DNA of 46,158 bases from IMG/VR virus record IMGVR_UViG_3300042896_000947, positions 1 through 46,158 of that record. One strand, written 5' to 3'. The notes under the pieces were generated by a model. The model worked only from the letters and a program-made list of their open reading frames with translations, had not been told where the DNA came from and did no database searches. This document shows positions 1,682 through 43,478 of the stretch, in pieces. The stretch is from a virus. Its lineage: Duplodnaviria > Heunggongvirae > Uroviricota > Caudoviricetes. The position numbers and the translations under genes are program-made. Within the stretch, counting starts at the first letter, position 1. Each line of letters opens with the position of its first letter.

Positions 1682-1768
1682 TTGGGAAGTTCCTTAGTTG
1701 GGAAGTTTGGGAAGGTTGGTACTGATGTGGCAGCGAGGTTTCAATCCCGCTGCTCACCCACTTATTAT

Positions 1769-1782
1769 AGTCAGTGCTGACT
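1769..1782. promoter_or_regulatory. Palindromic operator AGTCA-GTGC-TGACT abutting a minus-strand TATAAT (1764-1769) upstream of ssb
   Basis: Sequence read directly; the same motif recurs across the window. Confidence 0.75.
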
Positions 1783-1813
1783 GAGCCACAGTGGCAATTT
1801 ACGCGGCAGATTC

Positions 1814-2344
1814 TTACGCTGCGCTGCGCGACAGGGCGTCCATCACGCGGGTCTTGGCGCCATCGAGGCCAGCGGCGGCGAAGCCGACGGCGGTCGAACC
1901 CCGGAACTCACGGTTGGCATCCCGGGCGATTTGCAGCAGCATGTCCTTGCGCGAGTCAAAGGAGTGGGCTGCGCCCTTGGCCATGTCCAGCTCGAACTGC
2001 GCGTCAATCAGGCGCAGGCTGGCTGCGCGCCAGAGCGAGTCGGTGGTCACCGCCGACTTGACCTGGGCCTCGGTGGTCTTGGGGTTTTCTTCCAGGAGCG
2101 CGGCGCGGTGCTTGCGGTTGAGCACGGCTTCGAGCACTTCGAGGCGGTTCTTGTCGCGCTCGTACTGGCGCCGGGCGCGGGCCGACTGCTCGATGTAGTA
2201 GGACTGCAGCGCGGTCTGCTCTTCCATCGCCTTGCCGATGTTGGTCGGGTCGATGACGATGTCCTTTTTCAGCTGCGACGGATTAATGAAGCTGGTGATC
2301 GCCGGATCGGCGACGGCGTGAATGACAGGGTCGGTTGTACTCAT
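1814..2344 (-). CDS. Coiled-coil protein, possible UvsY-like recombination mediator
   Basis: Helical pattern (TEAQVKSAVTTD...FDSRKDMLLQ) and position next to the gp32-like gene; weak family recognition. Confidence 0.45.
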   Translation of the reverse strand: MSTTDPVIHAVADPAITSFINPSQLKKDIVIDPTNIGKAMEEQTALQSYYIEQSARARRQYERDKNRLEVLEAVLNRKHRAALLEENPKTTEAQVKSAVTTDSLWRAASLRLIDAQFELDMAKGAAHSFDSRKDMLLQIARDANREFRGSTAVGFAAAGLDGAKTRVMDALSRSAA

Positions 2345-2375
2345 GGGTTCCTTGGTGGTGGGGGTTAAGGGTTTT

Positions 2376-2389
2376 AGTCAGTAGTGACT
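2376..2389. promoter_or_regulatory. Palindromic operator AGTCA-GTAG-TGACT, 6 nt downstream of minus-strand TATAAT (2396-2401)
   Basis: Sequence read directly. Confidence 0.75.
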
Positions 2390-2418
2390 GATGAAATTAT
2401 AGGGAGCGGGTTTCGGCG

Positions 2419-6002: not shown

Positions 6003-6035
6003 GGGTTACCTCTTTCAATAAGTAGTGTCAGGGCG

Positions 6036-6635
6036 CTAGTTCGGCAGCAGCGCAAAATGCCCGCCCTGCTCGGTGGCAATGCGCCCTGCGGCGAAGATGG
6101 ACATGCCGACCGACGCTTGCACCTTGGCGCTTTGGGGCGTGAGGTCCAGGCGTTCGACCAGCGCCAGCGTCAGCTCGGCGCGGGTAGTGCCGCCGGCCAG
6201 CAGCAGGTCGCAAAAGACGTGCCTCCAGCCTTTGCTGGCCGGGTTGCGCCCGGCGCGAAACTCTGCGCGGGCAAAGTCAAACCAGCCGCGCTCGGCGAGC
6301 TGGCGCGCCGGGGCGCAGACCCGGGCGGGCAGGCTGTCGAACTGGCTCAGCTGGGCGGCGCTCAGGGTGCAGCGTTTGATGCCGCCCCTGCTGGTGGTCG
6401 CCACGACGCGCTGGGGCATGGGGCAGCTACCCTGCGCCGGCAGCCCGGCAAGCGCCCGGCGGGTCAGTGACAGCGACAGGCGTTCGCGCTGGGTGAGCGG
6501 GTTGCAGGGCAGGGTCTCCAGCAGGGACGAGGCCGCGTGGCCGCAGCTGCCTTGAAACGGGCAGCTGCGGCACGACGGCGAGTTGGCGCTCAGGGCGGTG
6601 GGCAGGCCGAAGCAGCCGGGATGCTCGATGCTCAC
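6036..6635 (-). CDS. Hypothetical protein with N-terminal Cys cluster (CFG...CRSC...C)
   Basis: ATGA overlap with the upstream gene; four clustered cysteines suggest metal binding. Confidence 0.7.
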   Translation of the reverse strand: MSIEHPGCFGLPTALSANSPSCRSCPFQGSCGHAASSLLETLPCNPLTQRERLSLSLTRRALAGLPAQGSCPMPQRVVATTSRGGIKRCTLSAAQLSQFDSLPARVCAPARQLAERGWFDFARAEFRAGRNPASKGWRHVFCDLLLAGGTTRAELTLALVERLDLTPQSAKVQASVGMSIFAAGRIATEQGGHFALLPN

Positions 6636-7288
6636 GACCAGCGCACGCCGAAGGTGGTGAGAATTTCGAGCTTCACGCGGCGCAGCTCGTCGCCCTGCAG
6701 GTTGGCCGCGCGGGCCAGCTCGCGCAGCTTGGGGGTGGGCTCCTGGTTCTGCTCGCTTTGCAGCAGCAGGCCGATCAGGGTGCGTCCGCCCTGCGAGAGC
6801 GAAGCCAGCTTGCGCTGCATCGCCTGGGCGCCTTCGAGCCGGGCGTCGGGCTGGTCGATGTCGGCAGCCGGCTGACTGTCCATGAACGGCGTGGCGCTGC
6901 TGTCATCTTCAAACGCCTCGCCCGTGAACTCGCCCTCGCTGCCGATCAGCAGCAGGCCGCGTTCGCGTTCCATCTTGGCGATGGCGTGGTTGAAGTTGTT
7001 CAGGCAGACCGTGGTGCAGTAGGTCGAGAACATCGCGCCGCCCTGTGCGTTCCACTTGTGCGTGGACTTGACGTAGCTGACGTTCATCTCCTGCAGCACA
7101 TCGCCGAACTCCATGCTCAGGCCCATGGCCTGCACCCGGGCGTAGCATTTGATCGCCAGCTTGTGCAGCAGCGCTTCGACCGAGGCATAAGAGCCGTCGT
7201 TGGCGAACTTTTCATTCTTCTCGGTGCGGGTGCGTGCCACGCGGGGTTTCTTCGCCCGCGTGGGCGCCATGACGGTGGTGGTGGTCAT
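6632..7288 (-). CDS. Sigma-70-like / sigma-factor-region-2 protein
   Basis: GDVLQEMNVSYVKSTHKWNAQGGAMFSTYCTTVCLNNF resembles sigma region 2.2-2.4; possible C-terminal HTH. Confidence 0.55.
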   Translation of the reverse strand: MTTTTVMAPTRAKKPRVARTRTEKNEKFANDGSYASVEALLHKLAIKCYARVQAMGLSMEFGDVLQEMNVSYVKSTHKWNAQGGAMFSTYCTTVCLNNFNHAIAKMERERGLLLIGSEGEFTGEAFEDDSSATPFMDSQPAADIDQPDARLEGAQAMQRKLASLSQGGRTLIGLLLQSEQNQEPTPKLRELARAANLQGDELRRVKLEILTTFGVRWS

Positions 7289-7297: not shown

Positions 7298-8485
7298 TTA
7301 TGCGAACACGCGCTGCGCGACTTGCGAGGCGGTCTCGCGGTCGGTCGAGGACAAGCGGTTGATGAACGACTTTTCCAGCCCGTTGCGGTAGTTGCCGCAG
7401 GCAATCCCGATCTTTGCGGCGTAGATCAAGCTGCGCGGCGAGATCGGGTTGCCGATGCGCCCGCCGTCGAACTCAGCGCGAACGCGACTGGCGAAATCGA
7501 CCAGCTTTTCTGCGTCCTTGAGCGGGATGCCCGCCTGCTGCGAGACCAGGCGTGACTCTGATTTCTTCTCCATGTAGGGCATCTGCTCGACGACGCCGAA
7601 GCGCTCGTAGTTTGCGGAGTTCTGCACGTTGGTGCCTTGGTACAGGCCGGACTCGTCGCCCTGGCCGTTCGTGTTGCCGGTGGCGCAGATGCGAAAGTCG
7701 GGGTGCGGGCGGATCACGCGGTTTGCCAGGTCAGCCTCCTTGATCACCAAGGGCTTGCCCTCCAGCACGGCTTGGTACACGCTGGTGACTTCCGGGCGAC
7801 CGAAGTCGTACTCGTCGGCCATGTAGAGCCAGCCGTACTTCATGGCCATGGCGAGCGGACCCAGCTCGAAGAACGTCTTACCGTCACGCAGACGCCAGCC
7901 CCCGACGATGTGCTCCTCTTCCATGTTGGCGGTGTGCTGCACGCGAAAGAACGGACGCTTGGTGCGCGCGGCGATCTGCTCGAAGATGGTCGTCTTGCCG
8001 GTGCCGGCGTGGCCCCACAGGTAGACCGGAATCTTCATCTCCAGGCCCATCATCAGGCTCTTGAGGACTTCGACGTTGAACAGGTAGTTCGGGTCGATGT
8101 CCGGAATCATGCTGGCGTTCTCCGCGTTCTCGGCCATCACGCTGATGGGGATGGGGTTGCCCGAGGTGCGGCTCATGGCGGCAGCGCCCGACCCGAGGCT
8201 GAAGACTTCGTGAAAGAACGCCTTGCTGCTGGTTGAAACAGAGTCATGAGTGACTGACGAGGCGGTGGCATCAGCCTTGGCTTTCATGAAGTCTTCGATC
8301 TTGCGGCGGGCAATCTCGCTCATGATGGGCTGGCCCGGGTACTGCGCCTCGTACTGCTCCAGCGTCATGGCCAGGTCCGCGTGTTCGCGGCCCAGGTGGT
8401 GCTGAATGGAGTGAACGAGGGCGCCGCAGATGGCGCACTTGACGCGGGAATCGACGGCGAGGGAGGCGGTGTCAGCGATGGTCAT
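7298..8485 (-). CDS. CobS-like / MoxR-family AAA+ ATPase with N-terminal C2H2-like finger
   Basis: Walker A GHAGTGKT, Walker B YMADEYD, ATGNTNGQGD and ISPRSL motifs; N-terminal CAICG...HHLGREH. Confidence 0.9.
   Translation of the reverse strand: MTIADTASLAVDSRVKCAICGALVHSIQHHLGREHADLAMTLEQYEAQYPGQPIMSEIARRKIEDFMKAKADATASSVTHDSVSTSSKAFFHEVFSLGSGAAAMSRTSGNPIPISVMAENAENASMIPDIDPNYLFNVEVLKSLMMGLEMKIPVYLWGHAGTGKTTIFEQIAARTKRPFFRVQHTANMEEEHIVGGWRLRDGKTFFELGPLAMAMKYGWLYMADEYDFGRPEVTSVYQAVLEGKPLVIKEADLANRVIRPHPDFRICATGNTNGQGDESGLYQGTNVQNSANYERFGVVEQMPYMEKKSESRLVSQQAGIPLKDAEKLVDFASRVRAEFDGGRIGNPISPRSLIYAAKIGIACGNYRNGLEKSFINRLSSTDRETASQVAQRVFA
8242..8255. promoter_or_regulatory. Intragenic perfect operator-like box AGTCA-TGAG-TGACT
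   Basis: Same 14-mer as the box at 35721; lies in the poorly constrained linker of the AAA gene. Confidence 0.55.
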
Positions 8486-8565: not shown

Positions 8566-8579
8566 AGTCATTTGTGACT
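8566..8579. promoter_or_regulatory. Palindromic operator AGTCA-TTTG-TGACT upstream of the AAA ATPase gene
   Basis: Sequence read directly; intergenic. Confidence 0.72.
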
Positions 8580-10845: not shown

Positions 10846-11016
10846 TCAACGAACCAGCAAAAACTCCTCGCTTGAGGCTTGAATCAGCACCACGCGCCGC
10901 CCCGCCATGGTAAGAATGGTTGCCTTAATACCTGCCACTGCGATGCACTCCGTCACAACAGAAGCCTCTAAAATGTCGGCGGCCTGCTCTATACCGAGTT
11001 TCTCCACATGCTGCAT
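10846..11016 (-). CDS. Small hypothetical protein (56 aa), first gene of the leftward operon, divergent from the repressor
   Basis: Manual translation MQHVEKLGIEQAADILEASVVTECIAVAGIKATILTMAGRRVVLIQASSEEFLLVR; RBS AAGGAA; below the ORF-track cutoff. Confidence 0.6.
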   Translation of the reverse strand: MQHVEKLGIEQAADILEASVVTECIAVAGIKATILTMAGRRVVLIQASSEEFLLVR

Positions 11017-11035: not shown

Positions 11036-11049
11036 TGTCACTATTGACT
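11036..11049. promoter_or_regulatory. Operator TGTCA-CTAT-TGACT, 5 nt downstream of minus-strand TACAAT (11055-11060)
   Basis: Sequence read directly; left operator of a divergent switch. Confidence 0.72.
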
Positions 11050-11164: not shown

Positions 11165-11178
11165 TGTCATTACTGACT
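11165..11178. promoter_or_regulatory. Operator TGTCA-TTAC-TGACT overlapping plus-strand TACAAT (11160-11165) upstream of the repressor
   Basis: Sequence read directly; right operator of the divergent switch. Confidence 0.72.
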
Positions 11179-11240: not shown

Positions 11241-11765
11241 ATGAGTGCATCCACCAACACCAAGCCCATCAAGGAAGATCACCGCAAGCGTGAACATCGC
11301 TTTTCCAAGATGCCTTTTCGCGACGTGATGAAAGTCGCGATGAAGGAAACCGGCGTCGGGAACGTGGAGATGCAGCAGGCGCTCGGCTACTCCAAGCCCA
11401 ACGTCATTGCGATGATCAAGAGCGGCTCGATGAGCCTGCCCGACGACAAGGCCGTGGTGGTTGCCCGGGTGCTGGGCCTCTCGCCCGCTTTCATGCTGCG
11501 CAAGCTGGTGCAGGAGAACAACCCGGCCCTGTGGGACGCCATCGAGTCGGTCATGGGTGACAGCTTGGTCACTGCCAGTGAGCTGGCGCTGGTCAATCTG
11601 GTACGCAAGGAACTCGACGGTCTGGACGTGAACCTGGCCGAGCACCCCGAGTTTGTCCAGACGGCGGTCCCGCTGCTGCGCGACATTGCCCAGCGTGAAA
11701 TGGCCACGACCCAGGCCACCTTGGAGCGCGTCGAGCGCGAACGCCTGTCCCGCAAGCCCAGCTGA
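11241..11765 (+). CDS. XRE-family HTH transcriptional regulator, candidate master repressor
   Basis: EMQQALGYSKPNVIAMIKSGSMSLPDDKAVVVARVLGLSP HTH pattern; start moved to 11241 because of RBS GGGAG; oriented opposite to the lytic genes. Confidence 0.8.
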   Translation: MSASTNTKPIKEDHRKREHRFSKMPFRDVMKVAMKETGVGNVEMQQALGYSKPNVIAMIKSGSMSLPDDKAVVVARVLGLSPAFMLRKLVQENNPALWDAIESVMGDSLVTASELALVNLVRKELDGLDVNLAEHPEFVQTAVPLLRDIAQREMATTQATLERVERERLSRKPS

Positions 11766-11787
11766 GCGACACGCCCGCCCTCCGATC

Positions 11788-11813
11788 AAGCCGACCTGAG
11801 TGTCGGTTTTTTT
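11788..11813 (+). terminator. Rho-independent terminator after the repressor gene
   Basis: AAGCCGAC-ctgagt-GTCGGTTT followed by a T-run. Confidence 0.78.
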
Positions 11814-11830
11814 GTGGCCGATTACCTAGC

Positions 11831-11892
11831 ATAGGCTACCCTAGTATAGATAGAATAGGCTACACTAGTATATCTATACTAGCCTACCCTAT
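11831..11892. repeat. 18-bp repeats upstream of parA (two direct, one inverted), candidate parS/par operator
   Basis: ATAGGCTACCCTAGTATA (11831), ATAGGCTACACTAGTATA (11855) and inverted ATAGGGTAGGCTAGTATA (11875-11892). Confidence 0.6.
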
Positions 11893-11928
11893 GGCATACT
11901 GGCCGCTCCCCAGCTGGAGCTATTATTT

Positions 11929-12585: not shown

Positions 12586-12877
12586 ACCCGGTTTCAGCAA
12601 ACCCCGCCTGGACCCCAATCAGGTCAACGACTTTGTTTCCGGCTCGGCCCTGGAGCGCATGCAGCGCCTGCCTGCGACGCTTGAGGCACCGTCTGCGCCC
12701 TTGGTGACGGAGCCCGAGTTGAATCCGCGCATCATGAAGCAGGTTAACTTCGATATGCCCGAGCCGGAGCATTACCGCCTGAAGCGCCTGGTGGACGCGA
12801 TGCCCAGCATGAGCATGCGCAAGTTCATCCTGGCCGCGATCAAGGAAAAGATGGAACGCCTGGGCGCCGAGCGCTGA
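12575..12877 (+). CDS. Small ParG/ParB-type ribbon-helix-helix centromere-binding protein
   Basis: Manual translation MASKPGFSKPRL...MKQVNFDMPEPEHYRLKRLVDAMPSMSMRKFILAAIKEKMERLGAER; overlaps the parA end; RBS GGAG. Confidence 0.78.
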   Translation: MASKPGFSKPRLDPNQVNDFVSGSALERMQRLPATLEAPSAPLVTEPELNPRIMKQVNFDMPEPEHYRLKRLVDAMPSMSMRKFILAAIKEKMERLGAER

Positions 12878-13014: not shown

Positions 13015-13057
13015 CGACCCCTCAAAAAACGCCAGCAAAATCAAGAGCTTAGGGCGC

Positions 13058-13210: not shown

Positions 13211-13256
13211 CAATAGCGGTGGACAGATTGGCAGGCACGGGCGAAACTTTGCCGCT

Positions 13257-28230: not shown

Positions 28231-28246
28231 TAATATCTCCATTGTC

Positions 28247-32991: not shown

Positions 32992-33482
32992 GCTGTGACT
33001 CCGATGTGCTCTGCCGATGGTTTTTCTTCGCCGCTGGCCCATACGTCCAGGCTGTTGGGGGTCTGCGCACACACCTGCAGGCGGTCGCCGCTGCTGCTGC
33101 TGTTGTCCAGCGACAAGCGTTTAAGCAGACTGCGGCCCTGAATAGGAATCAGTGCGGTGTCTCCGGCCGGTATGTTCATGCGACCCGGACAGGAGATGGC
33201 AATCTCATTGCCCATGCTGTCTTTCTCTTCCAGCAGCAGTTGGGTTTCAATCCAGCAGGCTGATGCGCTCTTGTTGCGGGCGTAGATAGGCGTCATGAAA
33301 AAGACCTCGCCGGGGCGCACCGCGCGGTTGTCGTCCGTGTCCCGGTTGGGGAAAACGCGGCTGGCGTCAGGCACTGAAAAATCAGGCGCTTCGGCCAGCG
33401 TGACCCATTCGGTGCCGACATTAGCCCGCGTGTAGTTCTTGGTGCGCCCGGTGGACGGTGTTTTGCAGTAGATGCGGGTCAT
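32988..33482 (-). CDS. Hypothetical beta-rich protein, partner of the upstream spike
   Basis: TAATG and ATGA overlaps with its neighbours. Confidence 0.68.
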   Translation of the reverse strand: MTRIYCKTPSTGRTKNYTRANVGTEWVTLAEAPDFSVPDASRVFPNRDTDDNRAVRPGEVFFMTPIYARNKSASACWIETQLLLEEKDSMGNEIAISCPGRMNIPAGDTALIPIQGRSLLKRLSLDNSSSSGDRLQVCAQTPNSLDVWASGEEKPSAEHIGVTA

Positions 33483-35707
33483 TAAAAGCTCCTGGAAATG
33501 GCGGCGCGAATGGCTAGTCGGCGGACAGCCTGGTCGAAGGGAGGCCCACCCAACTCGCCGGTGTCGGCATTGATCTGCAGGCCGCCGACAAACAAGGCAT
33601 TGCCTTGGTCGTCCTGGCCCGAGGCGATGACCACGCCATCGTCCGCCTCGATGATCGAATCCTGAATCGTGGCGCGGTTGAGGGCGGGCGGCAGCTTAGT
33701 CAGTGCCACCCCTGCCATGACGGCGGTCCAGGTGTGGCCGATGGCGGTGATGCGGCTGGGGTCTTTGCGGATAAAGTCGGCAGGGCTGCTGACGGTGCTG
33801 CTCAGGGCGGCAAACAAAGCGGAGACCAGCGTCTTGCTGGCCGCACTCATGCCAGGCAGCGCATTCACGGCGTCGCGCAGCTTGGTAAAGCCGAACAGGA
33901 AGGCAGGCAGCGTAGAGGCGGCAAACACCGGCTGGCCGATGGTGTTGAACAGACCCTTGGCAAAGTCAAGCATCGGCTGCTCGTTGCCCGATGTCAGTGT
34001 CCAGCTCAGGCAGCGCAGCAGCAGGGTGGCGTCAGAGCGGCTTTGCTCCCCGCGCAGCGTGGTCCAGCCGGCTGTGTAGCCGCCATCGACCAATGCGGTC
34101 CACATGTTGTTAACGATGGTTGCGCTGGACGCCTGCACCAGTGCGGACTCTAATGAGAAGGCGCGAAGCGCGACGCTTGAGGCAGCCGGCGTGATGACGC
34201 TGCGGCTCCCGCTGGCGTGCAGGGAGTAGTCGCCAAACTGCGTGGAGCAGCTCGACAAGATGACCTGGCCACCGGACAGCGCCATGAAGTGCTTGTGCGC
34301 CCACATGGACACGGCGTTCACTGCATTGATGAGCGCGCCGTTCTTGGCGCAGTAGCCGATGCCGTTGGGGGTCACGGGGGTGGCACCCCACGTCATGATG
34401 TTGGGAAATATCGAATACTGGCTGCATACCATGCCGTCGGCCAGCACCACGCCGCCGCCGCGCGGCACCAAGGGGTTGCTGTTGGCGCGATCCAGCGGAG
34501 GCGCGACCATGCCCCAGGTCGGAATTGAGCGCACGGCAATCTTGTGGGCATACGGCACGCGGGTGATGACGGCGTTGGGGCGAAAGCTGACAGCAAAGCC
34601 TTCGCTCGGGTTGTCCAGGTCGTCAATGCGCCAGCCCTCGAACATGATGCCCTCGATGAAGCAGCCGCTGCCCATGCGAAAGACGTTGCGCTCTTCAAAG
34701 CCGGCGTTGGGCCGCAGAAAGACGGTGCGGTGCGCCGCCTTGATGACGCAGCCATCCGGCATGTCCAGATGGCCATTGGTATAGACCGGGCTTTGAGGCG
34801 CCCATTCGATCAGGGTCGGCACGCCCGCCAGAGTGGCCAGCTCCAGCGCGCGCTCAATGGTGAGCAAGGCGTTTTTCCAGGAGCCGCCATTGCGCGCGTT
34901 GTTGCCGTTAGCCTTGACGTACAGCGTGTTGGCGACGGTGTACTCGATGCCGGCCACGCTGGGGTAGCGCTGGATTTCGACAGCAGAATGCACCGCGCCC
35001 GCTTGGTCGTGGCGATACAAAATCAGGTATTCGTTGTTGTCGGCAGATGGGACGCTGAAGTAGCGCGTTGCCTCCGTGGCTGCCAGGCCGACAGCCGTGG
35101 TCGGATAAACGCCGGCGCTCAACTGGGCGGCATCGCGCGCAGCCTCGGCCGCCGTCTTGGCGTTCAGCGCAACGCCGGAAGCGGCCTCGGACGCCAGGCG
35201 GCTCAGCTGGGAGGCTTCGGCGCTGGCGCCGGACAGGGCAGCTTGCTGAGTGGCAATAATGCGGCTGACCGCTGTCGCTTCGCTGTCCAGTCCTGTTTGG
35301 ATTTTGTCCGCTTCCGTACCCAGCTTGTCGGCGGCTGCGGATTTTGCAGAATCGTCTGACAAAACAGCAAAATCAAAAGCGTCGGTGGCAGAGCTGGCAG
35401 CAGCTTCGGCAGACAAGGCGGCGGCGATCTGACTGGCAGAGGCAGCGTCGGCTGACAGACCGGCCGCATGGTTGCTGCTCGCCGCTTCATCGGCGAAGGT
35501 GCCTGCCTCTTCAGCGCTGAGCGCAGCAGCGTCGCGACTGTCGTTGACTACGGCGCTCAACGCGCTGGTGATCGCACCCAGAGTGACACCGGCGCCAGTG
35601 CCTTGCATGCTGGTCTTGACCGCCCTAACAGTCTCGATGAGTTCAGTTGCAGTGCCGTCAAGGCTTTCAACTTTGGCAATAAGATCATCAAGCGTGGCTG
35701 TAGGCAT
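33482..35707 (-). CDS. Tail fibre/spike: Ala-rich coiled coil, adaptor, probable beta-helix
   Basis: AAASA repeats; YFSVPS...ILYRH...RYPS adaptor; LYVKANGNNARNGGSWKNALLTIERA beta-helix cap. Confidence 0.72.
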   Translation of the reverse strand: MPTATLDDLIAKVESLDGTATELIETVRAVKTSMQGTGAGVTLGAITSALSAVVNDSRDAAALSAEEAGTFADEAASSNHAAGLSADAASASQIAAALSAEAAASSATDAFDFAVLSDDSAKSAAADKLGTEADKIQTGLDSEATAVSRIIATQQAALSGASAEASQLSRLASEAASGVALNAKTAAEAARDAAQLSAGVYPTTAVGLAATEATRYFSVPSADNNEYLILYRHDQAGAVHSAVEIQRYPSVAGIEYTVANTLYVKANGNNARNGGSWKNALLTIERALELATLAGVPTLIEWAPQSPVYTNGHLDMPDGCVIKAAHRTVFLRPNAGFEERNVFRMGSGCFIEGIMFEGWRIDDLDNPSEGFAVSFRPNAVITRVPYAHKIAVRSIPTWGMVAPPLDRANSNPLVPRGGGVVLADGMVCSQYSIFPNIMTWGATPVTPNGIGYCAKNGALINAVNAVSMWAHKHFMALSGGQVILSSCSTQFGDYSLHASGSRSVITPAASSVALRAFSLESALVQASSATIVNNMWTALVDGGYTAGWTTLRGEQSRSDATLLLRCLSWTLTSGNEQPMLDFAKGLFNTIGQPVFAASTLPAFLFGFTKLRDAVNALPGMSAASKTLVSALFAALSSTVSSPADFIRKDPSRITAIGHTWTAVMAGVALTKLPPALNRATIQDSIIEADDGVVIASGQDDQGNALFVGGLQINADTGELGGPPFDQAVRRLAIRAAISRSF

Positions 35708-35720: not shown

Positions 35721-35734
35721 AGTCATGAGTGACT
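35721..35734. promoter_or_regulatory. Operator AGTCA-TGAG-TGACT, 5 nt downstream of minus-strand TATACT (35740-35745; possible -35 TTGTTT at 35763-35768)
   Basis: Sequence read directly; internal promoter for the accessory tail cassette. Confidence 0.75.
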
Positions 35735-35760: not shown

Positions 35761-36453
35761 CTAAACAAGGGGGTCGGTGGCTGCCCAGACGACAGAGGCG
35801 ACTTCTTCGGGCGTTGTTGCCGCCTCACCCTGCCCGCGCAGCACGCTCGCATAAGCGAAAGCTGCCGCCACGGCCTGCACCTTGGCCAGCTCGATGCCCA
35901 CAAAGTCCTGCGCACTCAGCGTGACCTGCGTGTTGTCGGCCAGAGTGAACTCGGCAGAGAATGCCTGGCCTGCCGCCAGCGCGCTCTTGCTGACCGAGAT
36001 GTAGGCGGCCAGGCGGCGCTGGGCGTTGAGGTCGCCGTCGAATACCATCGCGTTGTAGGTAAATGGTCCGAGTTCGGCGGCGTTGCGCGCCTGCTTGACT
36101 TCAAGCCATTTGGCGTCCTTGAGGTCTTGCAGGGTGCGCGGATCGACCCAGGTCCGGGCGTTCATGTCAAACAGGTGGTGCGGGCTGGGCCGAAAAGGCG
36201 GTAGCCCGGTCCATTCGGGGTGCGCCTCTACCGTTTCCTTGGCGTTCGCAGCGTGCTCGGCCGACCACTCCCCGTAACGTACATCAAGCACCGTTGTCAA
36301 GGCTGGTGCCGCGGTGCCTGATGTTTCTTCGGACAACCAGGAGCCAACCGTAATGGAGAAAATGAGGGTTGTTGAATCCAGCGCCATTCCCGTGATGGCG
36401 TGGTAATTCAGTGCCATATCGTTGTGGCGTAGGATGTTATTTCTGATGATCAT
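35761..36453 (-). CDS. DUF4376-like tail fibre assembly/chaperone protein
   Basis: WVDPRTLQDLKDAKWLEVKQARN...FDGDLNAQ...TLADNTQVTLSAQD pattern; follows J. Confidence 0.72.
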   Translation of the reverse strand: MIIRNNILRHNDMALNYHAITGMALDSTTLIFSITVGSWLSEETSGTAAPALTTVLDVRYGEWSAEHAANAKETVEAHPEWTGLPPFRPSPHHLFDMNARTWVDPRTLQDLKDAKWLEVKQARNAAELGPFTYNAMVFDGDLNAQRRLAAYISVSKSALAAGQAFSAEFTLADNTQVTLSAQDFVGIELAKVQAVAAAFAYASVLRGQGEAATTPEEVASVVWAATDPLV

Positions 36454-39400
36454 GGCGTTATGTTTATTCCATAGTTGGTTAAGTCAATCTTGAGCTTGTC
36501 CATCTCGCCGCGAAGCACCACGCCTTTCTCGTTAAAGAATTCGATGACGGCATAGCCGTTGCCGCCGGCGCCGCCTGGCGAGCTGTAGTCATAGTTTTTG
36601 AGGTGGGCATGCCCGCCGCCGCCGCCGCCACCCCGAGTTCCCGCCGAGGCGCCACCATGCCAGGAAGTGCCGCCGGCACCATACGAAGGGACTGCCGCGC
36701 CTGTGCCTCCGGCACCGCCAGCGTTTCCAAGCCCGCCAGATTCACCCGTGACACCATTGGTGGCAGCACCCCCGGCGCCGCCGTTTCCGTACCCGTCGCC
36801 ACCGGCGCCGCCGTTTGCAGCGATATAGCCGGCCAGGTAGGTCTGCCCGCCAGTGCCGCCCGTGTTGCCGGGCGTGTAAGAACCCCAGTTACCCCCGATA
36901 CCAGCACCACCTCCCCCACCTGCGCCGCCCACCCCGCAAACAATGGTGAACTGCTGTCCAGGCGAGACTGTTAAGGAGAACGAGGTGCGCCCACCGGCAC
37001 CGCCGCCGCCGCCTGCAAATCCAGAGTCGTTCTTACCGCCGCCCGCACCGCCGCCGCCAGCCCCAATCAGCAGGACGCGCATGCTTGTCATGGCACTAGG
37101 GACGGTAATCAGGTGCGTGCCCACATCACGGTATATGGTGGATCCCACCGAGCTGGCGAAGTCCACCGTCCCGGCTGCCAGCTTGCCCGAGAATGTGCCA
37201 GTCGTGCCGGTGATGTCCGCGCCGTTGAGCGCGCCTGCAAAACTGCCGCTGGCTGCAGACAGCGCGCCAGAAAAACTGCCTGTAGCGCCAATCAACTTGC
37301 CGGAAAACGTGCCATTCACCACAGACAAATTAGTACCATTGATTTTGTCGGCCGTGACCGACTCTGCCTCAAGCATGCGCGTCTTGATCGTGCCGTCCAC
37401 GTACATATTGGCATTGATGCCAATCGAGGACACGCCGTCGATCAGGCCAACCGTGAAGGGGTATTTTGTGGTGCCGTCAACATCTTGCGCAATGGCGAAC
37501 CGGTCAGTCAGGATGACAAAATCGCTGCCCGCTTCCGAGTCATTGTTGATGCGAAAGCCCGAGACCTTGCCGCCCGCCGAGAGCGTGACGCCGTACTTGG
37601 CAAACAACGCACCGGTTTCGTTGGCGCGCGCTTGCGCCTCGACCTTCACCAGCGCGGTAGTTTGCAGCAGAGCGGACTCCAGCGTGTAGGGCGTAGCGGG
37701 CAACGTGCCGCGCTCGACCTTGACCTGGCGAAAGCCGACCGACGCTGCCTTGCTCAGCGCGCTGGCAACAAAACGCGCGCGCATGTAGCTGCAGTTCACC
37801 GGCGCCACTGCTTCGACGACATGGGCCAGCCGGCTGACTCCGGTCATGTCAAAGTCGTGCGCCAGCAAGATGGGCGCTTGTCCCGAATCGAGCAGCAGCG
37901 CGTCGCTTGCGCTGTAGAACCGCAAGTCAAAATAAACCGAGCCTGAGCCGTCGGCATCGAGCGCCAGGCTGGAGTCACCCGTGATGATGACCTTGGCGCC
38001 CGCTTGAATGGTCATCTTCGGACTGCTCCAGACATGGGTGCCGTCTGCCGGGTTGAGCACCTTGGCATGAACGCCCCATTCGGCCGTATCTACCACCAAT
38101 TCCGTCGCTCCGGTCCACTCGCTCACGTCCTGGCACAAGTTGGGCCGGCTTGTCACGCTGGCCGAAACCTGCGTGATCAAGCTGGCGCTGGCCTCGTCGG
38201 CGCTGGTGCGAACGCGCGCCTCTTCAACCACGGCGGCCAGCGCGCTGGCGTGGTCGGTGTTGGTCTGCGCGACCAGGGACTCCACACGCACACTGAGCGC
38301 CTCGTCGCCGTCGGCGCGCTCGACGATTTCAATGGAATTGCTCACTGCCGCCACCGAAGCGCTGAACGCGTCCTTTACCCGCAGCAGTGTCAGGTCGGTT
38401 TTGATGTCCTCGACAATCACGTCCAGGCCCATCGTCAGCGCGTCAATCGCCTCGTCAATGCTGGGCAGCACGGTAACCAGGATATAGCCGGGCACGCCGG
38501 CATTGCCGCCTGCATCTATCGCGAACACCCAGTACATGTAGTTGCCCGGCGTCTCCTCGTTGCGAACGCTGCCAAGCGAGCTGACCAGATCGAACTGCAC
38601 CGACGTAGCCAGCGTGGCGCCCACCCGGAGGCTGTAGCCGGCAATCGGCTGCGAAGCGGTGCAGTCCTGCCAGCTGAGCGTAACCTCATTGCGCCACACT
38701 TCGGCTGTCACCAGCGGCTGCGTTGGCGGATTCACCTGGATTTGCGCCATGGTCGCCGCCGACCAGGAGCCAGTGGTATTCGCATTGGCAGCCCAGACCT
38801 TGACCAGCCCGCTCTTGAGCCAGCCGATGTTGGCAGAGGTGGCCTTGCCGGTGAACACGATGACGCCCGTGTCCCAGCTTTCGCCCAGGCGAATTTGCGT
38901 CACCGCCCAGTCAGATACGCCGTTGTTGGCAGGCTGCGCCCAGGAGACAATTGCGCCCAGGCTGGAGATGTTGATTGCCAGCTCTTTTACCACCGGCGCG
39001 GCCTTGCTGGCGCCGGAGACTGTGTAGGTGAGCGTGGGTGCGGTGCCTTCCGAAGCAGTCGCGCCCACCACATCGCTGGCGATCGCCTTGAAGACCACGG
39101 TATCGCCCGCTTCGCAGTACAGACTGGCGCTGCTCTTGGCTTCGGTGGCAATGACTTCAAAGGCACGGCCGTTGACGGACGCTTTGACGGTGCAGCTGCT
39201 GTAGGAGGACTGGTTGGAGTAAAAACCCACAGTGACATTGGTCACGTTGCCGCGACCAGAAGTCACCACTGACTCCGTTACGCCGTCAAAAATGACGTGC
39301 GCCACGCCCGAAGCCAGGCTGGAGTAGTTGCCGGTGGGCAGCGCCATGCCGCTGAAGTCGTAGCAAGAGGCGTTGTACTCGACGCAGGACAGGTCGCGCT

Positions 39401-42074
39401 TGTACTCATGGGTGCCGTTGATGGCCTTGACCCGAAACGGTTTTCTGACCTTGCTGACTTCGCCGAACATCCAGTTGACAAACGCGTCGGGCGCGGCTGA
39501 AAACGGCGTCATGGCCGTCAGCACCTGGCGGTTTCCAGGCTGGGCGACAACGTCGCGCTCCTCGATCACATCGGTGTCCCACAGCTCATAAGGCATGCCG
39601 GCCGAGAACTCGCCCACGCCACCTGGCTCAATGACAATGCCGCCGGCAAAACTCGACAGCACGGCGCGGTCGATGCCGTTTGCCTTGATGCGCTTGACGA
39701 GCGCGCCGGCGCCCCCGTTGGACAGCGTCAGCGTATTGCCGATGACTGCGTTAATCGTGCCGGTGCCGCGCCTGACGGCGTCGAACTTGAGCAGCAGCTT
39801 GTACTGCTTGGCCGCTTCAAGCGGCACTTCCCGGTCCAGCTGGATCACGCTTGCGGTGCTCGCGGGCGCGGTGCGGCCGGCAAATCCCCACTGCGGCATG
39901 TCGTGCTGCACATAGATGAGGTCGCCTACCGTGCAGGCAATCGCTTCGGTGGGGGCGCTGAACTCGACGGTCTGCAAAATGTAGCGGTTCAAGTTGAGCT
40001 GGAAAAACCCCTCCTTGTACGCTTTTTCCCGATCGACCACGCCGGCCAGCGTGATGGCCGAGGGACGCTGCGTGTCGCCCCGGCTGATGGCGTTCACGTC
40101 CACCACGCGGATCGAGCGCTGCTTGTAGTCGTCGGCCTTGTCGAAAAAGGTTACGTCGATTTCATTGGAGCGGTCGGCCATGCCCAGCCAGGTCTCCTTG
40201 AAGGTGCCCTCGATGATGTTGCCCACCCCGAACATCATGGTTGGCGCGGCCGGGCGCTCGATGACGACCGTGTAGCGCGTGCCGACGTTGACGATCTGCG
40301 CATGCCCGCAGCGCATGACCGGCTGCAGCGCATCCCACACGTTCATGGCGCTTTCGATGACGCCGTTAAAGGTGAGGTTGGCCTGCTCGCAGTAGCGCGC
40401 CCACTCCAGAAACATTTCAATGTCAAAGCGCGAAACCGGCATCGAGGCGCCGTAGCGCGTGTGCGTGAGCGCGTCCAGCACGATCCAGGCCGGGTTGCTC
40501 GACGACCCCTCGACCCAGGCGTTTGCCGCGAAGTCAAAGCTGCGAATGCGCCGACCACCGTTGAGAAACGTCACGGTTGGCATGCCCGAGAGCTGCTCGT
40601 CGAGCTGAATCTTCAGCGCCACCAGGGCGGTGTTGGCATAGGCCACATCATCCAGAATGATTTCGTTCACGTCCGTGATCGACACATCGTCCTGAATGTG
40701 GGTTTCCTTGGTGTCGGGCGTGGTGCGGCGCAGGCGGCACTCGTACACACCCTGCGCCAAGGTGCCGGTGTGGTAGCTGCGGCGCACGGGCGAGGTCGAG
40801 TTTTCGCTGACGGTGATGCCGGGCTCGTAGGTCGGCACCTTGTCAAAAGTGCCCACTTCGGTGCGGGCGGCGTATTCCGTGACGGTGCTGCTTTCGTCAC
40901 CCTGTCCGCTGACGGCATAGGTGTAGTCGTAGTACACCACGTTGCGCCCGCCGGAGTCGTCAAAGCTGTAGTTGGCCGGCAGGGTGTTGCTTGTGACCTG
41001 CGAGGATGTCGAGGCGGTCCAGCCGATAACGCGGCCCAGCGAGTAAATAGGCGCGCCCGGCGTGGTCTGGACGTAATGAAAAACGCGGGAAAAGCCTGTT
41101 TCGCGGGTGCCCACGGGACTCCAGGCGGAGCTGCCCTTGAGGCGCACTTCGATTTCAACAGCTACCGAAACGGCGCTGCGCTTGCCGTCGCTCAGGCTGG
41201 TCAGGCCCATGCCGGCCGGGAATACCAGATCAAAGCGCAGGCGGTCAACTGGCCCGCTGGTCTCATAGAGCACGTATTCGCCGGGCACCAGCTGCTTGTT
41301 GAGCGATACGGGGGTGGTGGTGTCGCCAAACCAGGAGATGATGGGCTGGTTGGCCTCGCCCAGGCGTACCTGCGTTTCGACTTTCTTGTAGTTTGCAATC
41401 GGCTGGTCATTGATGCGCAGGTCGCCCAGGCTGGCCACGGGGCCTTCGCCGGCGTTGAGCAGCAGGTACAGCGACTGCGTCGTGCCTTCGTTTTCCACGA
41501 AGGCGTTAAGCACGTTGCCGCCCTGTCGGAACGTGCCGTAGCACACCGGCACGGGAATCCCTTCTGCCGAGGTGTTTTTGGCGCCGTCGATGCCGTAGGA
41601 TGAACCATCCGCAATGTCCGAGGAGGCGCCAGAGCTGGCCTTGGGCGGCGCCAGCAGGGCGTTGACCAGCATCCCGCCGGCCAGCGTCACACCGGCCGTC
41701 AGCGCGCCCAGCATCATGCCCGCGTTGGCCATGACCAGCGTGCCGCCCATGGCGCCATACATGGCACCTGCCGCGTAAGGGGCGTACACGGCAATGGCGA
41801 TCATCGCCACCACGCGCAAGATGTTCTTACCGCCCCCGCCGCCGGTCGGGATGGGGCAGATCACCAGATTGTCGGTGCGGTCCAGGTAGGTGCTGGCCAT
41901 GTCTTCTGGCTCGACCGGCTGGCCGTTGATCGACACCACATGCTCGACCATGCCGGCGGGGAAGTAGTCGGCCAGTGTCTGACCGCTTTTCCACACCAGG
42001 GTCTCGCGCACCGCGTCGCGCGGATCAAAGGGGTTGACGATGCGGATGACGGGAATCAGGACTTCGGTGTTCAT
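36450..42074 (-). CDS. Tip attachment / host-specificity protein J (central tail fibre) with Gly-rich C-terminal domain
   Basis: IPVCYG, YANTALVALKI, SSNPAWIVLDALT, FN3-like repeats, DUF1983-like AKYGVTL...SGF...SDFVILTDRFAI, GGGGAGG-rich end; start moved to 42074. Confidence 0.9.
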   Translation of the reverse strand: MNTEVLIPVIRIVNPFDPRDAVRETLVWKSGQTLADYFPAGMVEHVVSINGQPVEPEDMASTYLDRTDNLVICPIPTGGGGGKNILRVVAMIAIAVYAPYAAGAMYGAMGGTLVMANAGMMLGALTAGVTLAGGMLVNALLAPPKASSGASSDIADGSSYGIDGAKNTSAEGIPVPVCYGTFRQGGNVLNAFVENEGTTQSLYLLLNAGEGPVASLGDLRINDQPIANYKKVETQVRLGEANQPIISWFGDTTTPVSLNKQLVPGEYVLYETSGPVDRLRFDLVFPAGMGLTSLSDGKRSAVSVAVEIEVRLKGSSAWSPVGTRETGFSRVFHYVQTTPGAPIYSLGRVIGWTASTSSQVTSNTLPANYSFDDSGGRNVVYYDYTYAVSGQGDESSTVTEYAARTEVGTFDKVPTYEPGITVSENSTSPVRRSYHTGTLAQGVYECRLRRTTPDTKETHIQDDVSITDVNEIILDDVAYANTALVALKIQLDEQLSGMPTVTFLNGGRRIRSFDFAANAWVEGSSSNPAWIVLDALTHTRYGASMPVSRFDIEMFLEWARYCEQANLTFNGVIESAMNVWDALQPVMRCGHAQIVNVGTRYTVVIERPAAPTMMFGVGNIIEGTFKETWLGMADRSNEIDVTFFDKADDYKQRSIRVVDVNAISRGDTQRPSAITLAGVVDREKAYKEGFFQLNLNRYILQTVEFSAPTEAIACTVGDLIYVQHDMPQWGFAGRTAPASTASVIQLDREVPLEAAKQYKLLLKFDAVRRGTGTINAVIGNTLTLSNGGAGALVKRIKANGIDRAVLSSFAGGIVIEPGGVGEFSAGMPYELWDTDVIEERDVVAQPGNRQVLTAMTPFSAAPDAFVNWMFGEVSKVRKPFRVKAINGTHEYKRDLSCVEYNASCYDFSGMALPTGNYSSLASGVAHVIFDGVTESVVTSGRGNVTNVTVGFYSNQSSYSSCTVKASVNGRAFEVIATEAKSSASLYCEAGDTVVFKAIASDVVGATASEGTAPTLTYTVSGASKAAPVVKELAINISSLGAIVSWAQPANNGVSDWAVTQIRLGESWDTGVIVFTGKATSANIGWLKSGLVKVWAANANTTGSWSAATMAQIQVNPPTQPLVTAEVWRNEVTLSWQDCTASQPIAGYSLRVGATLATSVQFDLVSSLGSVRNEETPGNYMYWVFAIDAGGNAGVPGYILVTVLPSIDEAIDALTMGLDVIVEDIKTDLTLLRVKDAFSASVAAVSNSIEIVERADGDEALSVRVESLVAQTNTDHASALAAVVEEARVRTSADEASASLITQVSASVTSRPNLCQDVSEWTGATELVVDTAEWGVHAKVLNPADGTHVWSSPKMTIQAGAKVIITGDSSLALDADGSGSVYFDLRFYSASDALLLDSGQAPILLAHDFDMTGVSRLAHVVEAVAPVNCSYMRARFVASALSKAASVGFRQVKVERGTLPATPYTLESALLQTTALVKVEAQARANETGALFAKYGVTLSAGGKVSGFRINNDSEAGSDFVILTDRFAIAQDVDGTTKYPFTVGLIDGVSSIGINANMYVDGTIKTRMLEAESVTADKINGTNLSVVNGTFSGKLIGATGSFSGALSAASGSFAGALNGADITGTTGTFSGKLAAGTVDFASSVGSTIYRDVGTHLITVPSAMTSMRVLLIGAGGGGAGGGKNDSGFAGGGGGAGGRTSFSLTVSPGQQFTIVCGVGGAGGGGGAGIGGNWGSYTPGNTGGTGGQTYLAGYIAANGGAGGDGYGNGGAGGAATNGVTGESGGLGNAGGAGGTGAAVPSYGAGGTSWHGGASAGTRGGGGGGGHAHLKNYDYSSPGGAGGNGYAVIEFFNEKGVVLRGEMDKLKIDLTNYGINITP
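39261..39274. promoter_or_regulatory. Intragenic perfect operator-like box AGTCA-CCAC-TGACT, with a second GTCA-N4-TGAC at 39284-39297
   Basis: Sequence read directly, inside J. Confidence 0.45.
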
Positions 42075-42454
42075 GTAGGCTCGCCAACGTATTGATAGAA
42101 ACCGGCGATGCGCCGCCGCCATGGGTCCAGGCGCTCGATGACGACGCCGCCCGACTGCTCCCAGGTGTGAACCATCTGGGTGCTGTCGAGCAGGTAGCCG
42201 CAGTGAGAGATGTGGCGTCCAATGCGAAACAGGGCGACCGCGCCGGCCATGGGCGGCACTTCGCGCCAGGCTTGCACGCCGGCGGCGAACTTGGCCATGA
42301 TCACAGTCTGGTCGGCGCTGCTTTTGAAGTCGGGAATTGCAATGCCGTGGTGCTCGCGCAGCAGGTGCATGACCAGCCCGTAGCAGTCAAAGCTGTCCGG
42401 GCCGCGCCCGCCGGTGACGAAGGGTGCGCCAATCAGGCGGCTTACATCAACCAT
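42071..42454 (-). CDS. NlpC/P60 tail assembly protein (lambda K-like)
   Basis: GGRGPDSFDCYGLV...HCGY...MVH; start moved to 42454. Confidence 0.88.
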   Translation of the reverse strand: MVDVSRLIGAPFVTGGRGPDSFDCYGLVMHLLREHHGIAIPDFKSSADQTVIMAKFAAGVQAWREVPPMAGAVALFRIGRHISHCGYLLDSTQMVHTWEQSGGVVIERLDPWRRRIAGFYQYVGEPT

Positions 42455-43082
42455 AGCGCGCGCCGTTGCTGTTGATGCCGGGGAATGCGCCAAAGCGAAC
42501 GGTGTTGCCGTGTGCAGCGCAGCCGTTGGCGCCCTGCAGGCTCAGGTCGCAGCTTGACAAGCCGCCGGTGTAGCCGCAGGTGACTGCGTCCTTGTAGCGC
42601 CACTGGCAAAAGTCGCGCGTTTGCTTGCGGCGCGGAAAGGTCTTGGCCAGCGCGTTCTCCACGCCCAGCGTGAAAGAGGCCGAGTAGTCTGCCGAGGACG
42701 CGCCAATGACCTCGAAGTCCTCGATGATTTCGGGCGGCTGGTCGAGCGCGCCAGCGTTGACCACCAAAATGGAGACGCGAAAGCCCACCCCGCCGCCGTA
42801 GGCTTGCATGCGCCCCTGCAGCGCGCGCGTGTAGTCCACGATGCTTAGATTGACCGAACCTTGCGTTCCTGCTTCTTGCTTTAGCTCTAGGTCAAACAAA
42901 ATGGCCTTGTAGACAAAGCCGTTGTAAATGATGTCCTCGTCGTTACGCACTAGATGCAGCACCTCGACAGTTGCGAATGTGGCGGGGTCGATAACAGTGA
43001 TGTCAAGACATGGCAGAAACGGCACATCCGAAGATAGCCGGTTCTTCTCAATGACGGATGCGACGGAAAGTTGTTTTGGCAT
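42447..43082 (-). CDS. Minor tail protein L-like
   Basis: C-terminal CQWRYK...CGY...CDLSLQGANGC...FGAFPGI Cys motif. Confidence 0.8.
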   Translation of the reverse strand: MPKQLSVASVIEKNRLSSDVPFLPCLDITVIDPATFATVEVLHLVRNDEDIIYNGFVYKAILFDLELKQEAGTQGSVNLSIVDYTRALQGRMQAYGGGVGFRVSILVVNAGALDQPPEIIEDFEVIGASSADYSASFTLGVENALAKTFPRRKQTRDFCQWRYKDAVTCGYTGGLSSCDLSLQGANGCAAHGNTVRFGAFPGINSNGARYG

Positions 43083-43087
43083 AGATC

Positions 43088-43101
43088 AGTCAGTTGTGAC
43101 T
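43088..43101. promoter_or_regulatory. Operator AGTCA-GTTG-TGACT between the tail M-like and L-like genes
   Basis: Sequence read directly; CATAAT on the minus strand at 43106-43111. Confidence 0.72.
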
Positions 43102-43106
43102 AATGA

Positions 43107-43478
43107 TTATGCCTGCTGCAGCTCGAACGAGCAATCCCAGGCGTCGTTGCCGCCAATGCCCACATAGCTAAAGGTGAGGCCCTGGCCAATGAAGCGCACG
43201 CTGTAGTCCTGGCTGGACTGCGGGTCGGTCCACTTAAAAATCACCGAGCCGCCGCAAACCATATCGTAGAAGTCGTCAATCAGCTGCTTGTCGGCGTTGT
43301 CGATGAAGGTGTACGCGATCTTGAACTTGCGCCTGGGCTTGCGGGTGAAGCGGGCACGCGAAATGGTGTAGCCGCCCTCGGCCTCCGAGCGCATCGCTGG
43401 GTCCACTTTGCTGACCTCGTACTTGGACGAGTCAGGCGCCTTACCCGAGGGCAAGGTGGGGAATACGGGGTCTGCCAT
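43107..43478 (-). CDS. Minor tail protein M-like (distal tail)
   Basis: IDDFYDMVCGGSVIFKWTDP pattern; position after the tape measure gene. Confidence 0.75.
   Translation of the reverse strand: MADPVFPTLPSGKAPDSSKYEVSKVDPAMRSEAEGGYTISRARFTRKPRRKFKIAYTFIDNADKQLIDDFYDMVCGGSVIFKWTDPQSSQDYSVRFIGQGLTFSYVGIGGNDAWDCSFELQQA

Follow-up and report, generated by a model that had tools for sequence, protein, structure and literature searches.

The first 46 kb of the IMG/VR virus record IMGVR_UViG_3300042896_000947 (46,158 nucleotides (nt), in the following the window) carry a 14-bp palindrome, AGTCA-N4-TGACT, which we call the box and which is dispersed over the whole 110,158-bp record, which has a completeness rating of 100% and is here denoted G000. 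The boxes are probably read by a master repressor of the element itself. The candidate put forward by sequence and structure prediction is the 174-amino-acid (aa) protein encoded at 11241-11765, i.e., an XRE-type helix-turn-helix (HTH) protein that would act as a symmetric dimer and silence nearly all lytic units. The large terminase (TerL) of G000 is 58-62% identical to those of SSU5 (Salmonella), Cyrano (an E. coli phage-plasmid), Klebsiella phage-plasmids, nickie (Pseudomonas syringae), RHEph10 (Rhizobium) and Stenotrophomonas phages, which places the element in the SSU5 group of phage-plasmids (PMC7969092). The handles G002-G008 and L166-L168 stand for related records and contigs.

Enrichment, conservation and placement of the box

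A search of the window for AGTCANNNNTGACT gives exactly 11 perfect matches (starting at 1769, 2376, 8242, 8566, 20011, 20544, 24186, 28247, 35721, 39261 and 43088) vs. 0.01 expected from dinucleotide-preserving shuffles (maximum 1). These are the same coordinates as in a preliminary description of the window, whose hand estimate of about 0.02 chance matches agrees well with the shuffles. Its near-perfect copies are likewise recovered, with one mismatch each at 11036, 11165 and 15108 and two at 24915 (GGTCACTATTGACC). The whole of G000 holds 27 perfect and 16 one-mismatch copies. Among the perfect ones, 24/27 lie between genes or at most 20 nt from a gene end (p ~1e-14, given an approximate gene map with 86% coding). 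Two of the three copies deep in coding sequence fall into the window, i.e., 8242 in an AAA_5 ATPase gene and 39261 in a 1890-aa tail-fibre gene, and the other 9 of its 11 perfect boxes are intergenic or overlap a gene end. An equal density in bacterial chromosomes, which the preliminary description had named as the sign of a host regulator's site, is not observed in the genomes compared: four alphaproteobacterial genomes contain 6 copies in 20.2 Mb.

Box-positive relatives were found by an IMG/VR scan for the extended form of the box given below; several of these records are about 105-118 kb long. Perfect boxes number 41 in G003 (117,697 bp, GC content 65%), 24 in G005 (43%) and 20 in G007 (42%). 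These three genomes are syntenic with G000 at protein identities of 25-75%, and their DNA is essentially unalignable. A fifth lineage is represented by the contig L167 with 5 perfect boxes in 11.5 kb. The boxed junctions are the same in all five TCAG-type lineages, where a box precedes AAA5, the HTH gene, the gene at 48387-49241, the major capsid gene and the UvsW-like helicase. No AGTCA box occurs in the lytic nickie and BUCTxx99. Since elements with GC contents of 42-65% share the box and chromosomes hardly contain it, its reader should be encoded by the element. The motif, its enrichment, its placement and its conservation are thus established here, as is the co-occurrence with the HTH protein detailed in the next section.

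With regard to promoters, a sense-strand TANNNT accompanies 14/27 perfect boxes of G000 vs. about 0.9 expected, counting hexamers that lie 9-14 nt ahead of the box or start 0-8 nt past its last base. The varying offsets to -10-like hexamers noted in the preliminary description are real, and they fall into three arrangements. In the first, the -10 lies 4-6 nt upstream and the box sits at about +1, e.g., TATAAT-AAAATC-AGTCA (2376, 15108, 35721, 43088, 92279, 97630 and 98441). In the second, the box directly joins the -10 or ends shortly before it (TGACTATAAT at 1769, as well as 20544 and 24186); this form dominates in G005 and G007 (TGACT|ATACT or TATAAT). In the third, it is fused to a -35, as at 8566 and in G003, where it takes the form CTGACTGAAACGCCG-N-CGCTATAAC and reads CTGACTGAAAC-N16-TATAAC. 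The free box centre accommodates other signals, namely an ATG start (20011), a TGA stop (24186) or a GGTGA Shine-Dalgarno (G003).

Boxes on the -35, the -10 or +1 are incompatible with one activator geometry and fit occlusion, in line with the earlier suggestion that variable placement favours a dimeric repressor over an activator. The box could still be a positive promoter element that replaces the -35 and recruits polymerase via an activator of the element or via the sigma-70-like protein encoded at 6632-7288, as Lpa does at the -22 inverted repeat of P1 late promoters. Most boxes of G005 and G007 indeed run directly into a -10-like hexamer, for which no -35 can be recognised at a distance of 17 bp, the same fusion occurs in G000 at 1769 and 100859, and a sigma70_r2-like gene stands in the first lytic operon (with a clean PF04542 match on a relative's contig). 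But elsewhere the box follows a good -10 hexamer (at +1 to +14) or precedes a -35, such that no single geometry fits, and in G003, G005 and G007, whose box is identical, no conservation of the sigma-like protein is detectable. Furthermore, the lytic nickie and BUCTxx99 also need late transcription yet manage without a dispersed palindrome, and the spelling of the box diverges between lineages as immunity specificities do. We therefore regard an activating role as unlikely.

Three further candidates were discarded. TGACT is not a -35 hexamer, as its spacing to the -10 is 0-8 nt and not 17; N4-type hairpin promoters were rejected, as no phage RNA polymerase turned up among the scanned proteins; and a likeness to IHF sites was dropped as a poor match.

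On the minus strand, the extended box reads (A/G)T(C/A)-AGTCA-N3C-TGACT-(G/T)A, and AGTCA-N4-TGACT is most likely the core of a putative operator of 18-20 bp. Its flanks are asymmetric: T is found at -2 in 24/27 boxes of G000, the mirroring A at +16 in 12/27. The upstream bias is repeated in three relatives (sign tests give p ~0.007 in three genomes and 0.08 in the fourth), and it flips at 62868 and 64665, i.e., at the boxes ahead of the plus-strand genes at 62.9-64.9 kb. We attribute the bias to the downstream flank, which usually doubles as -10, Shine-Dalgarno or start codon and leaves only the upstream flank free to keep the palindrome; besides this, the box may have an orientation-dependent function. 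In the longest copies each arm is a short word written twice, e.g., TCAGTCAGT|ACTGACTGA in G005 and G007, and the enteric phages show TAAGTAAGT-like arms of the same kind.

Orientation also bears on a reading of the box as RNA, i.e., as a 5-7 bp hairpin that lies at the 5' end of phage mRNAs or between their cistrons, is recognised by an RNA-binding protein or nuclease and governs stability, processing or translation. Boxes are co-oriented with transcription in four genomes, often lie at a predicted +1 (which would yield a 5'-terminal hairpin) and sometimes hold the start codon, stop codon or Shine-Dalgarno listed above. The element also encodes an Hfq-like protein. However, the arms are invariant and the loop is free, and a set of more than 110 boxes shows no compensatory change. 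The commonest single variant, TGATT, does keep a G.U pair, but 27/40 one-mismatch variants break the pairing, and wobble-compatible ones (7) are no commoner than their DNA mirrors (6). The 14-nt hairpin is weak (about -3 kcal/mol), boxes upstream of a -10 or -35 are not transcribed from that promoter, and a downstream flank that has to encode the signals named would account for the flank asymmetry. A function as RNA thus appears very improbable.

The individual boxes of the window are located as follows. The one at 1769-1782 ends, on the sense (minus) strand, with the T that begins TATAAT, and is separated by 87 nt from the downstream gp32-like SSB gene 752-1681. Box 2376-2389 is at about +1 of the minus-strand promoter CCCTATAAT-ttcatc-box, 31 nt upstream of gene 1814-2344. 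Box 8566-8579 separates the stop of the CobT/VWA gene from the start of the AAA_5 gene, a junction boxed in all five TCAG-type genomes. The one-mismatch copy at 15108-15121 is at +1 of GACTATAAT-aaatc-box and 12 nt upstream of gene 14754-15095. At 20011-20024, the box centre is the ATG of gene 19397-20020, with the Shine-Dalgarno GGAG just upstream of the box. Box 20544-20557 lies 7 nt upstream of TACAAT and 42 nt upstream of gene 20055-20501. Gene 24192-24890 has a box at both ends: its TGA stop is the centre of the perfect box 24186-24199, which stands at the head of the Hfq-like/DnaB/primase block, 6 nt ahead of TATAAT, while the two-mismatch copy 24915-24928 (GGTCA...TGACC) lies 24 nt upstream of the gene and 17 nt downstream of TACAAT. 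Box 28247-28260 stands immediately upstream of gene 27814-28242. In TATACT-gaata-box, the +1 is taken by box 35721-35734, and the 741-aa tail-appendage operon (33482-35707) follows 13 nt further downstream. The box at 39261-39274 is the one inside the tail-fibre (gpJ-like) gene. Box 43088-43101 follows CATAAT-catt within the tail operon, between the gpM-like gene 43107-43478 and the gpL-like gene 42447-43082; short gaps inside operons are also boxed at 51825 (capsid stop/terminator) and 55312 (TerL/portal).

The intragenic AAA_5 box lies exactly 243 nt from the start codon both in G000 (8242-8255) and in L167 (6273-6286), with identical arms and different centres; it could be an internal operator or reflect a codon constraint. 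At the capsid gene, the stop codon is followed by the box, a -10-like hexamer and a GC hairpin in G000 (51825), G003 (39198), G005 (79675) and G007 (90406), and in three of these four genomes a T-run follows the hairpin. By its sequence, this arrangement looks like a promoter nested in a terminator. The string GACTATAAT occurs six times in G000, on the minus strand only (1772, 15135, 90786, 92307, 97657 and 100862); in three copies GACT is the end of a box, and the other three are lone half-sites by a -10 with a full box at +1. Many small genes of G003 (e.g., at 85798-85860, 89655, 99969 and 105731) are headed by a promoter module TGAAACGCCG-N10-12-CGCTATAAC-aaATC-box, whose GAAAC -35 resembles extracytoplasmic function (ECF)-type promoters.

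The HTH protein and its switch region

To relate the box to a reader, a phyletic profile was computed, i.e., every open reading frame (ORF) of G000 was compared by tblastn with the box-positive G003, G005 and G007 and with three family members that lack the AGTCA box (SSU5, nickie and BUCTxx99). Only the HTH ORF and ThyX are found in all of the box-positive and none of the box-negative genomes, such that the HTH ORF is the only regulator-type gene that tracks the AGTCA box among these six.

The box may alternatively be the DNA operator of another protein, i.e., of a 56-aa ORF in the position of cro, of a ParB_N protein that silences globally in the manner of KorB, or of a host factor. G000 carries ParA, TrfA and two ParB_N proteins (60818-61474 and 62178-62912), and a dispersed regulon of IncP plasmids is known to be under the ParB homologue KorB. 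Both ParB_N proteins, however, are present in all six profiled genomes and thus equally in relatives with no box or with another spelling, and this phyletic pattern led us to reject them as readers. A host factor is disfavoured by the range of GC contents over which the box is shared and by its near absence from bacterial chromosomes. As for the small divergent ORF, it is kept in position, and a partner of the Cro type should use the same operators, but it belongs to no recognisable DNA-binding family, and any binding by it would add to that of the HTH protein and not replace it. Altogether, we give another reader only a slim chance.

The candidate reader is encoded on the plus strand (11241-11765, with the ORF open from 11196 or 11241) and is predicted to consist of an N-terminal XRE/Cro-C1-type HTH and a helical C-terminal dimerisation domain. 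Its HTH motif is GY-x-(K/R)PN(V/I)xxM(I/F)KxG with P53, N54, M58 and G62 invariant and the recognition helix KPNVIAMIKSG; the family comprises about 2000 representatives. A scan of IMG/VR for close relatives with the HTH protein gave nothing, and a word-indexed protein search only 5 short contigs. In the AlphaFold model, residues 21-100 have a pLDDT of 84-90 and the C-terminal half is all-helical. Foldseek aligns 61-76 residues of the N-terminal domain to P22 c2, 434, SinR, ImmR, DdrO and HigA (target TM 0.6-0.77, probability ~1.0). The model thus points to the five-helix Cro/C1 fold (XRE, HTH_3-like), with no curated family matched by sequence. No Peptidase_S24 match was obtained in the Pfam scan, i.e., the protein is not of the autocleaving lambda CI/LexA type.

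The predicted homodimer scores 0.54 vs. 0.01 for the best control, at least 92% of the contacts recur between runs, and the partner pLDDT is at least 76; in a calibration of the tool, its mark was reached by 20/30 solved homodimers and 1/23 monomers. The interface is symmetric and formed by C-terminal helices (residues ~96-154). The prediction supports a dimer of the HTH protein.

The HTH gene is divergent from the 56-aa ORF (10846-11016, minus strand, no family match), and ORFs of 64-70 aa occupy the place of the latter in the contigs encoding the HTH homologues P0022 (L167) and P0095 and in Cyrano (CYRAN_46). Each of the two divergent promoters has the same CCTCCCTACAAT -10 region and a one-mismatch box with a weakened TGTCA arm. 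The 56-aa ORF and the CobT-AAA5-sigma-like-DnaE operon are under the minus-strand promoter CCCTCCCTACAAT-aaagc-box, with the box at 11036-11049 as its +1. The box at 11165-11178 overlaps the -10 of the plus-strand promoter CCTCCCTACAAT|GTCATTACTGACT ahead of the HTH gene and is presumed to be its autoregulatory operator. The layout of repressor, small ORF, CobT and AAA5 with a boxed divergent region is also found in L167, G005/G007 and the enteric relatives.

A profile search with the HTH protein revealed homologues in Cyrano and in Klebsiella pJN2-26. That of Cyrano, CYRAN_45, is annotated as 'putative repressor' and is among the few prophage genes expressed in the LF82 lysogen, at 10-fold over the local background (PMC9928086). 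Given co-occurrence, fold, predicted homodimer, switch layout and homology to Cyrano, the gene at 11241, which the preliminary description had proposed as regulator, appears to be the best candidate.

Downstream of the HTH gene follows a plasmid block on the plus strand with ParA, a small partner ORF, iterons and TrfA (11929-14060). The earlier statement that the par/trfA promoters have no perfect box can be extended, i.e., no box with up to 2 mismatches is found at 11549-14070. The block may be co-transcribed with the repressor gene.

Operator spellings and the proposed regulation

From these observations we infer binding, repression rather than activation, and the dimer stoichiometry, which combine into the following model. 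In the TrfA/ParA plasmid state, the repressor dimer would occupy about 27-43 operators that abut or overlap the -35, -10 or +1 of almost all lytic units (for replication, recombination, nucleotide metabolism, head and tail), and the occupied operators would shut out the host RNA polymerase. The weakened TGTCA-arm boxes on the repressor gene and on the divergent first lytic operon would provide autoregulation and a switch, while the box-free parA-trfA block would stay on.

De novo searches for over-represented gapped palindromes gave, besides the AGTCA-N4-TGACT of G000, G003, G005 and G007 (27, 41, 24 and 20 copies), the outer register TCAGT-N8-ACTGA in G002 (21 copies), AATCA-N4-TGATT / TCAAT-N4-ATTGA in G004 and RHEph10 (7-10 copies each), and TAAGT-N4-ACTTA in SSU5, Cyrano and pJN2-26 (7-8 copies). 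A dispersed palindrome is present in every compared genome that encodes a member of the HTH family, while nickie and BUCTxx99 have neither. Diverged copies of the HTH family accompany different spellings, with TAAGT-N4-ACTTA keeping the 5-N4-5 spacing. Such divergence in spelling between lineages is typical of immunity specificities. Distant family members (contigs L166 and L168, four alphaproteobacterial genomes) have no AGTCA box beside their gene, i.e., the specificity is not common to the whole family. A simple code from recognition helix to spelling was sought and given up: the helices differ suggestively between spelling classes, and no clear code emerged. SSU5, Cyrano and pJN2-26 carry a second dispersed palindrome, AAACAA-N-TTGTTT, in 11-14 copies mostly after a GATAAT -10, with no counterpart in G000; these enteric elements therefore probably have a second global regulator.

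Several observations weigh against repression by the HTH protein. SSU5 keeps its TAAGT boxes without having the protein. Its genome (NC_018843) shows about 1 kb of non-coding DNA and a tRNA at 41776-42761, where the syntenic region of Cyrano (OV696614, 41090-42574, between the ligase block and CobT) encodes an integrase and the repressor; the sequences are consistent with SSU5 being a virulent deletion derivative that has lost the integrase-repressor region. G008, an IMG/VR provirus of 105,962 bp, has six AGTCA-N4-TGACT boxes and no detectable HTH homologue. The phyletic pattern is furthermore confounded with lifestyle, i.e., the temperate relatives have box and protein and the lytic ones neither. 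As to the protein, it matches no family of Pfam (E<=0.01) or PHROG, and the Foldseek E-values of its HTH domain are weak (0.02-0.2).

Placement raises further points of this kind. Promoter occlusion is no obvious role for boxes that separate the capsid stop from a terminator or two tail-tip genes from each other, or that lie within a gene. Some boxes could act positively, as many promoters next to a box have no -35 and the element encodes a sigma-like protein. Finally, box orientation follows transcription (TC upstream is kept far oftener than GA downstream), which a symmetric dimer does not require.

Boxes inside operons and genes might be accommodated if the dimeric XRE repressor also acted there as an orientation-sensitive roadblock to elongating polymerase, i.e., similar to stoperators but independently evolved in Gram-negative phage-plasmids. 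In addition, the spellings (cores AGTCA, AATCA and TAAGT) may mark distinct immunity groups, which decide which SSU5-type elements can coexist in a cell. We consider this combination of intra-operon roadblock and immunity groups doubtful.

The element and its relation to known systems

The G000 record stems from a lake-water metagenome, and its DNA was detected only there and in one further run with a small share, and in no RNA data set. Searches of phage and plasmid collections for near-identical DNA relatives gave none. Almost all genes are on the minus strand. Family scans revealed genes for replication (gp32-like SSB, DnaE fused to a UDG-like domain, DNA ligase, primase, DnaB helicase), for recombination and nucleotide metabolism (RecA-like, SbcC-like, RuvC, ThyX, dUTPase, ribonucleotide reductase) and for the virion (terminase, portal, major capsid protein, lambda-like tail tip with gpM-, gpL-, gpK- and gpJ-like proteins), as well as the AAA_5/CobT-VWA pair, an Hfq-like protein, the two ParB_N proteins and the UvsW-like helicase. 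The Hfq-like gene (23719-24120, minus strand; Pfam Hfq E 6e-8, ~60-aa N-terminal extension) is the first gene past box 24186.

The preliminary description had placed replication, tail and lysis genes in one regulon. Boxes do stand on replication and tail genes, but the lysis part did not hold. The NlpC/P60 gene 42071-42493 had to be rejected as a lysis gene, since it matches a lambda gpK-like minor tail protein and lies on the minus strand within the tail-tip set, together with the gpM-like and gpL-like genes given above and the gpJ-like gene 36450-42122; the regulon has no demonstrated lysis gene, and no lysis cassette was located. The flat, P1-C1-like network proposed there agrees with boxes that lie directly on many units. 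The sigma-70-like protein (6632-7288, minus strand, 218 aa) is, however, encoded in the first lytic operon behind the switch, which makes strict flatness uncertain. Its Sigma70_r2 match is weak (E 0.002), while the clean PF04542 match of the relative's contig belongs to a syntenic 210-aa gene. A phage sigma factor, if real, would mean a transcription cascade added to direct repression.

A further palindrome, ACATG-N5-CATGT (6 copies), was rejected as a regulatory site: five copies with a spacing of about 75 bp lie at 29466-29777, where they are a coding repeat (29.4-29.8 kb) in a 1290-aa surface-repeat protein.

SSU5-type phage-plasmids are common, with relatives in lake water, among rhizobial and Pseudomonas syringae phages and among E. 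coli, Salmonella and Klebsiella elements. In the literature, we found no description of either regulon (AGTCA- or TAAGT-type) nor of how SSU5-type elements stay silent as plasmids. A candidate repressor family with its operator, in at least three spellings each with a diverged copy of the protein, offers a testable model of lysogeny control and heteroimmunity for this group. Practical handles are the prediction of temperate vs. virulent lifestyle (as for SSU5, which lacks the repressor region), promoter annotation and orthogonal repressor/operator pairs. New here are the several operator spellings across lineages, the phyletic choice of the reader, the link to the repressor expressed in Cyrano lysogeny, the dimer prediction and the tests against a reading as RNA.

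Within the same virus family, the enteric SSU5/pHCM2-type elements (SSU5, Cyrano, pJN2-26) resemble G000 in a 61% identical TerL, the synteny of repressor, small ORF, CobT and AAA5, and a dispersed 5-N4-5 palindrome. They differ in the TAAGT-N4-ACTTA box, in the second palindrome AAACAA-N-TTGTTT and in having 0 copies of the AGTCA box.

Among characterised systems, phage P1 is closest in lifestyle; its C1 repressor has 22 dispersed operators (PMC8546580). As in the C1 system, many operators are scattered in G000 over the genome of a plasmid prophage of about 100 kb, at lytic promoters for replication and late functions, and the candidate repressor gene has its own operator; one repressor would thus act directly on all of them. 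In contrast to the palindromic box, however, the P1 operators are asymmetric 17-mers (ATTGCTCTAATAAATTT), the HTH protein has no homology to C1 (the Pfam scan reported no family at all), and P1 late genes run through Lpa, whereas the head and tail genes of G000 are directly boxed.

Cluster A mycobacteriophages (L5 gp71, TipsytheTRex) have operators plus stoperators (PMC9283540, PMC6550527). They share with G000 the more than 20 sites per genome, located at promoters and in short intergenic gaps inside operons, the orientation along transcription and the divergence of specificity between immunity groups. That is, oriented intra-operon sites are found in G000, but an asymmetric site read by a monomer is not: stoperators are asymmetric 13-mers bound by a two-domain monomer, while the box is palindromic, its reader is a predicted dimer and only its flanks are oriented. 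The hosts of G000-type elements are moreover Gram-negative and the element is a plasmid prophage.

The repressors of 434, P22 (c2) and lambda resemble the candidate in the N-terminal fold, the 14-bp operator with conserved arms and free centre, the dimer on a palindrome (here predicted) and the divergent repressor/cro-like switch. These phages, in contrast, have 6 operators in two clusters plus a cascade, while G000 has 27-43 dispersed sites, and the HTH protein has no S24 peptidase domain and a distinct, all-helical C-terminal domain.

A palindromic operator at many intergenic sites is known from the Streptomyces phage phiC31, where it is read by repressor c; phiC31 is an integrating 41-kb phage, and its repressor is unrelated to the HTH protein. 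The regulatory principle is therefore already known from P1, L5 and phiC31. What sets G000 apart from these systems is the palindromic operator together with a predicted dimeric XRE-type protein of an unannotated family and with boxes that lie directly on structural-gene units.

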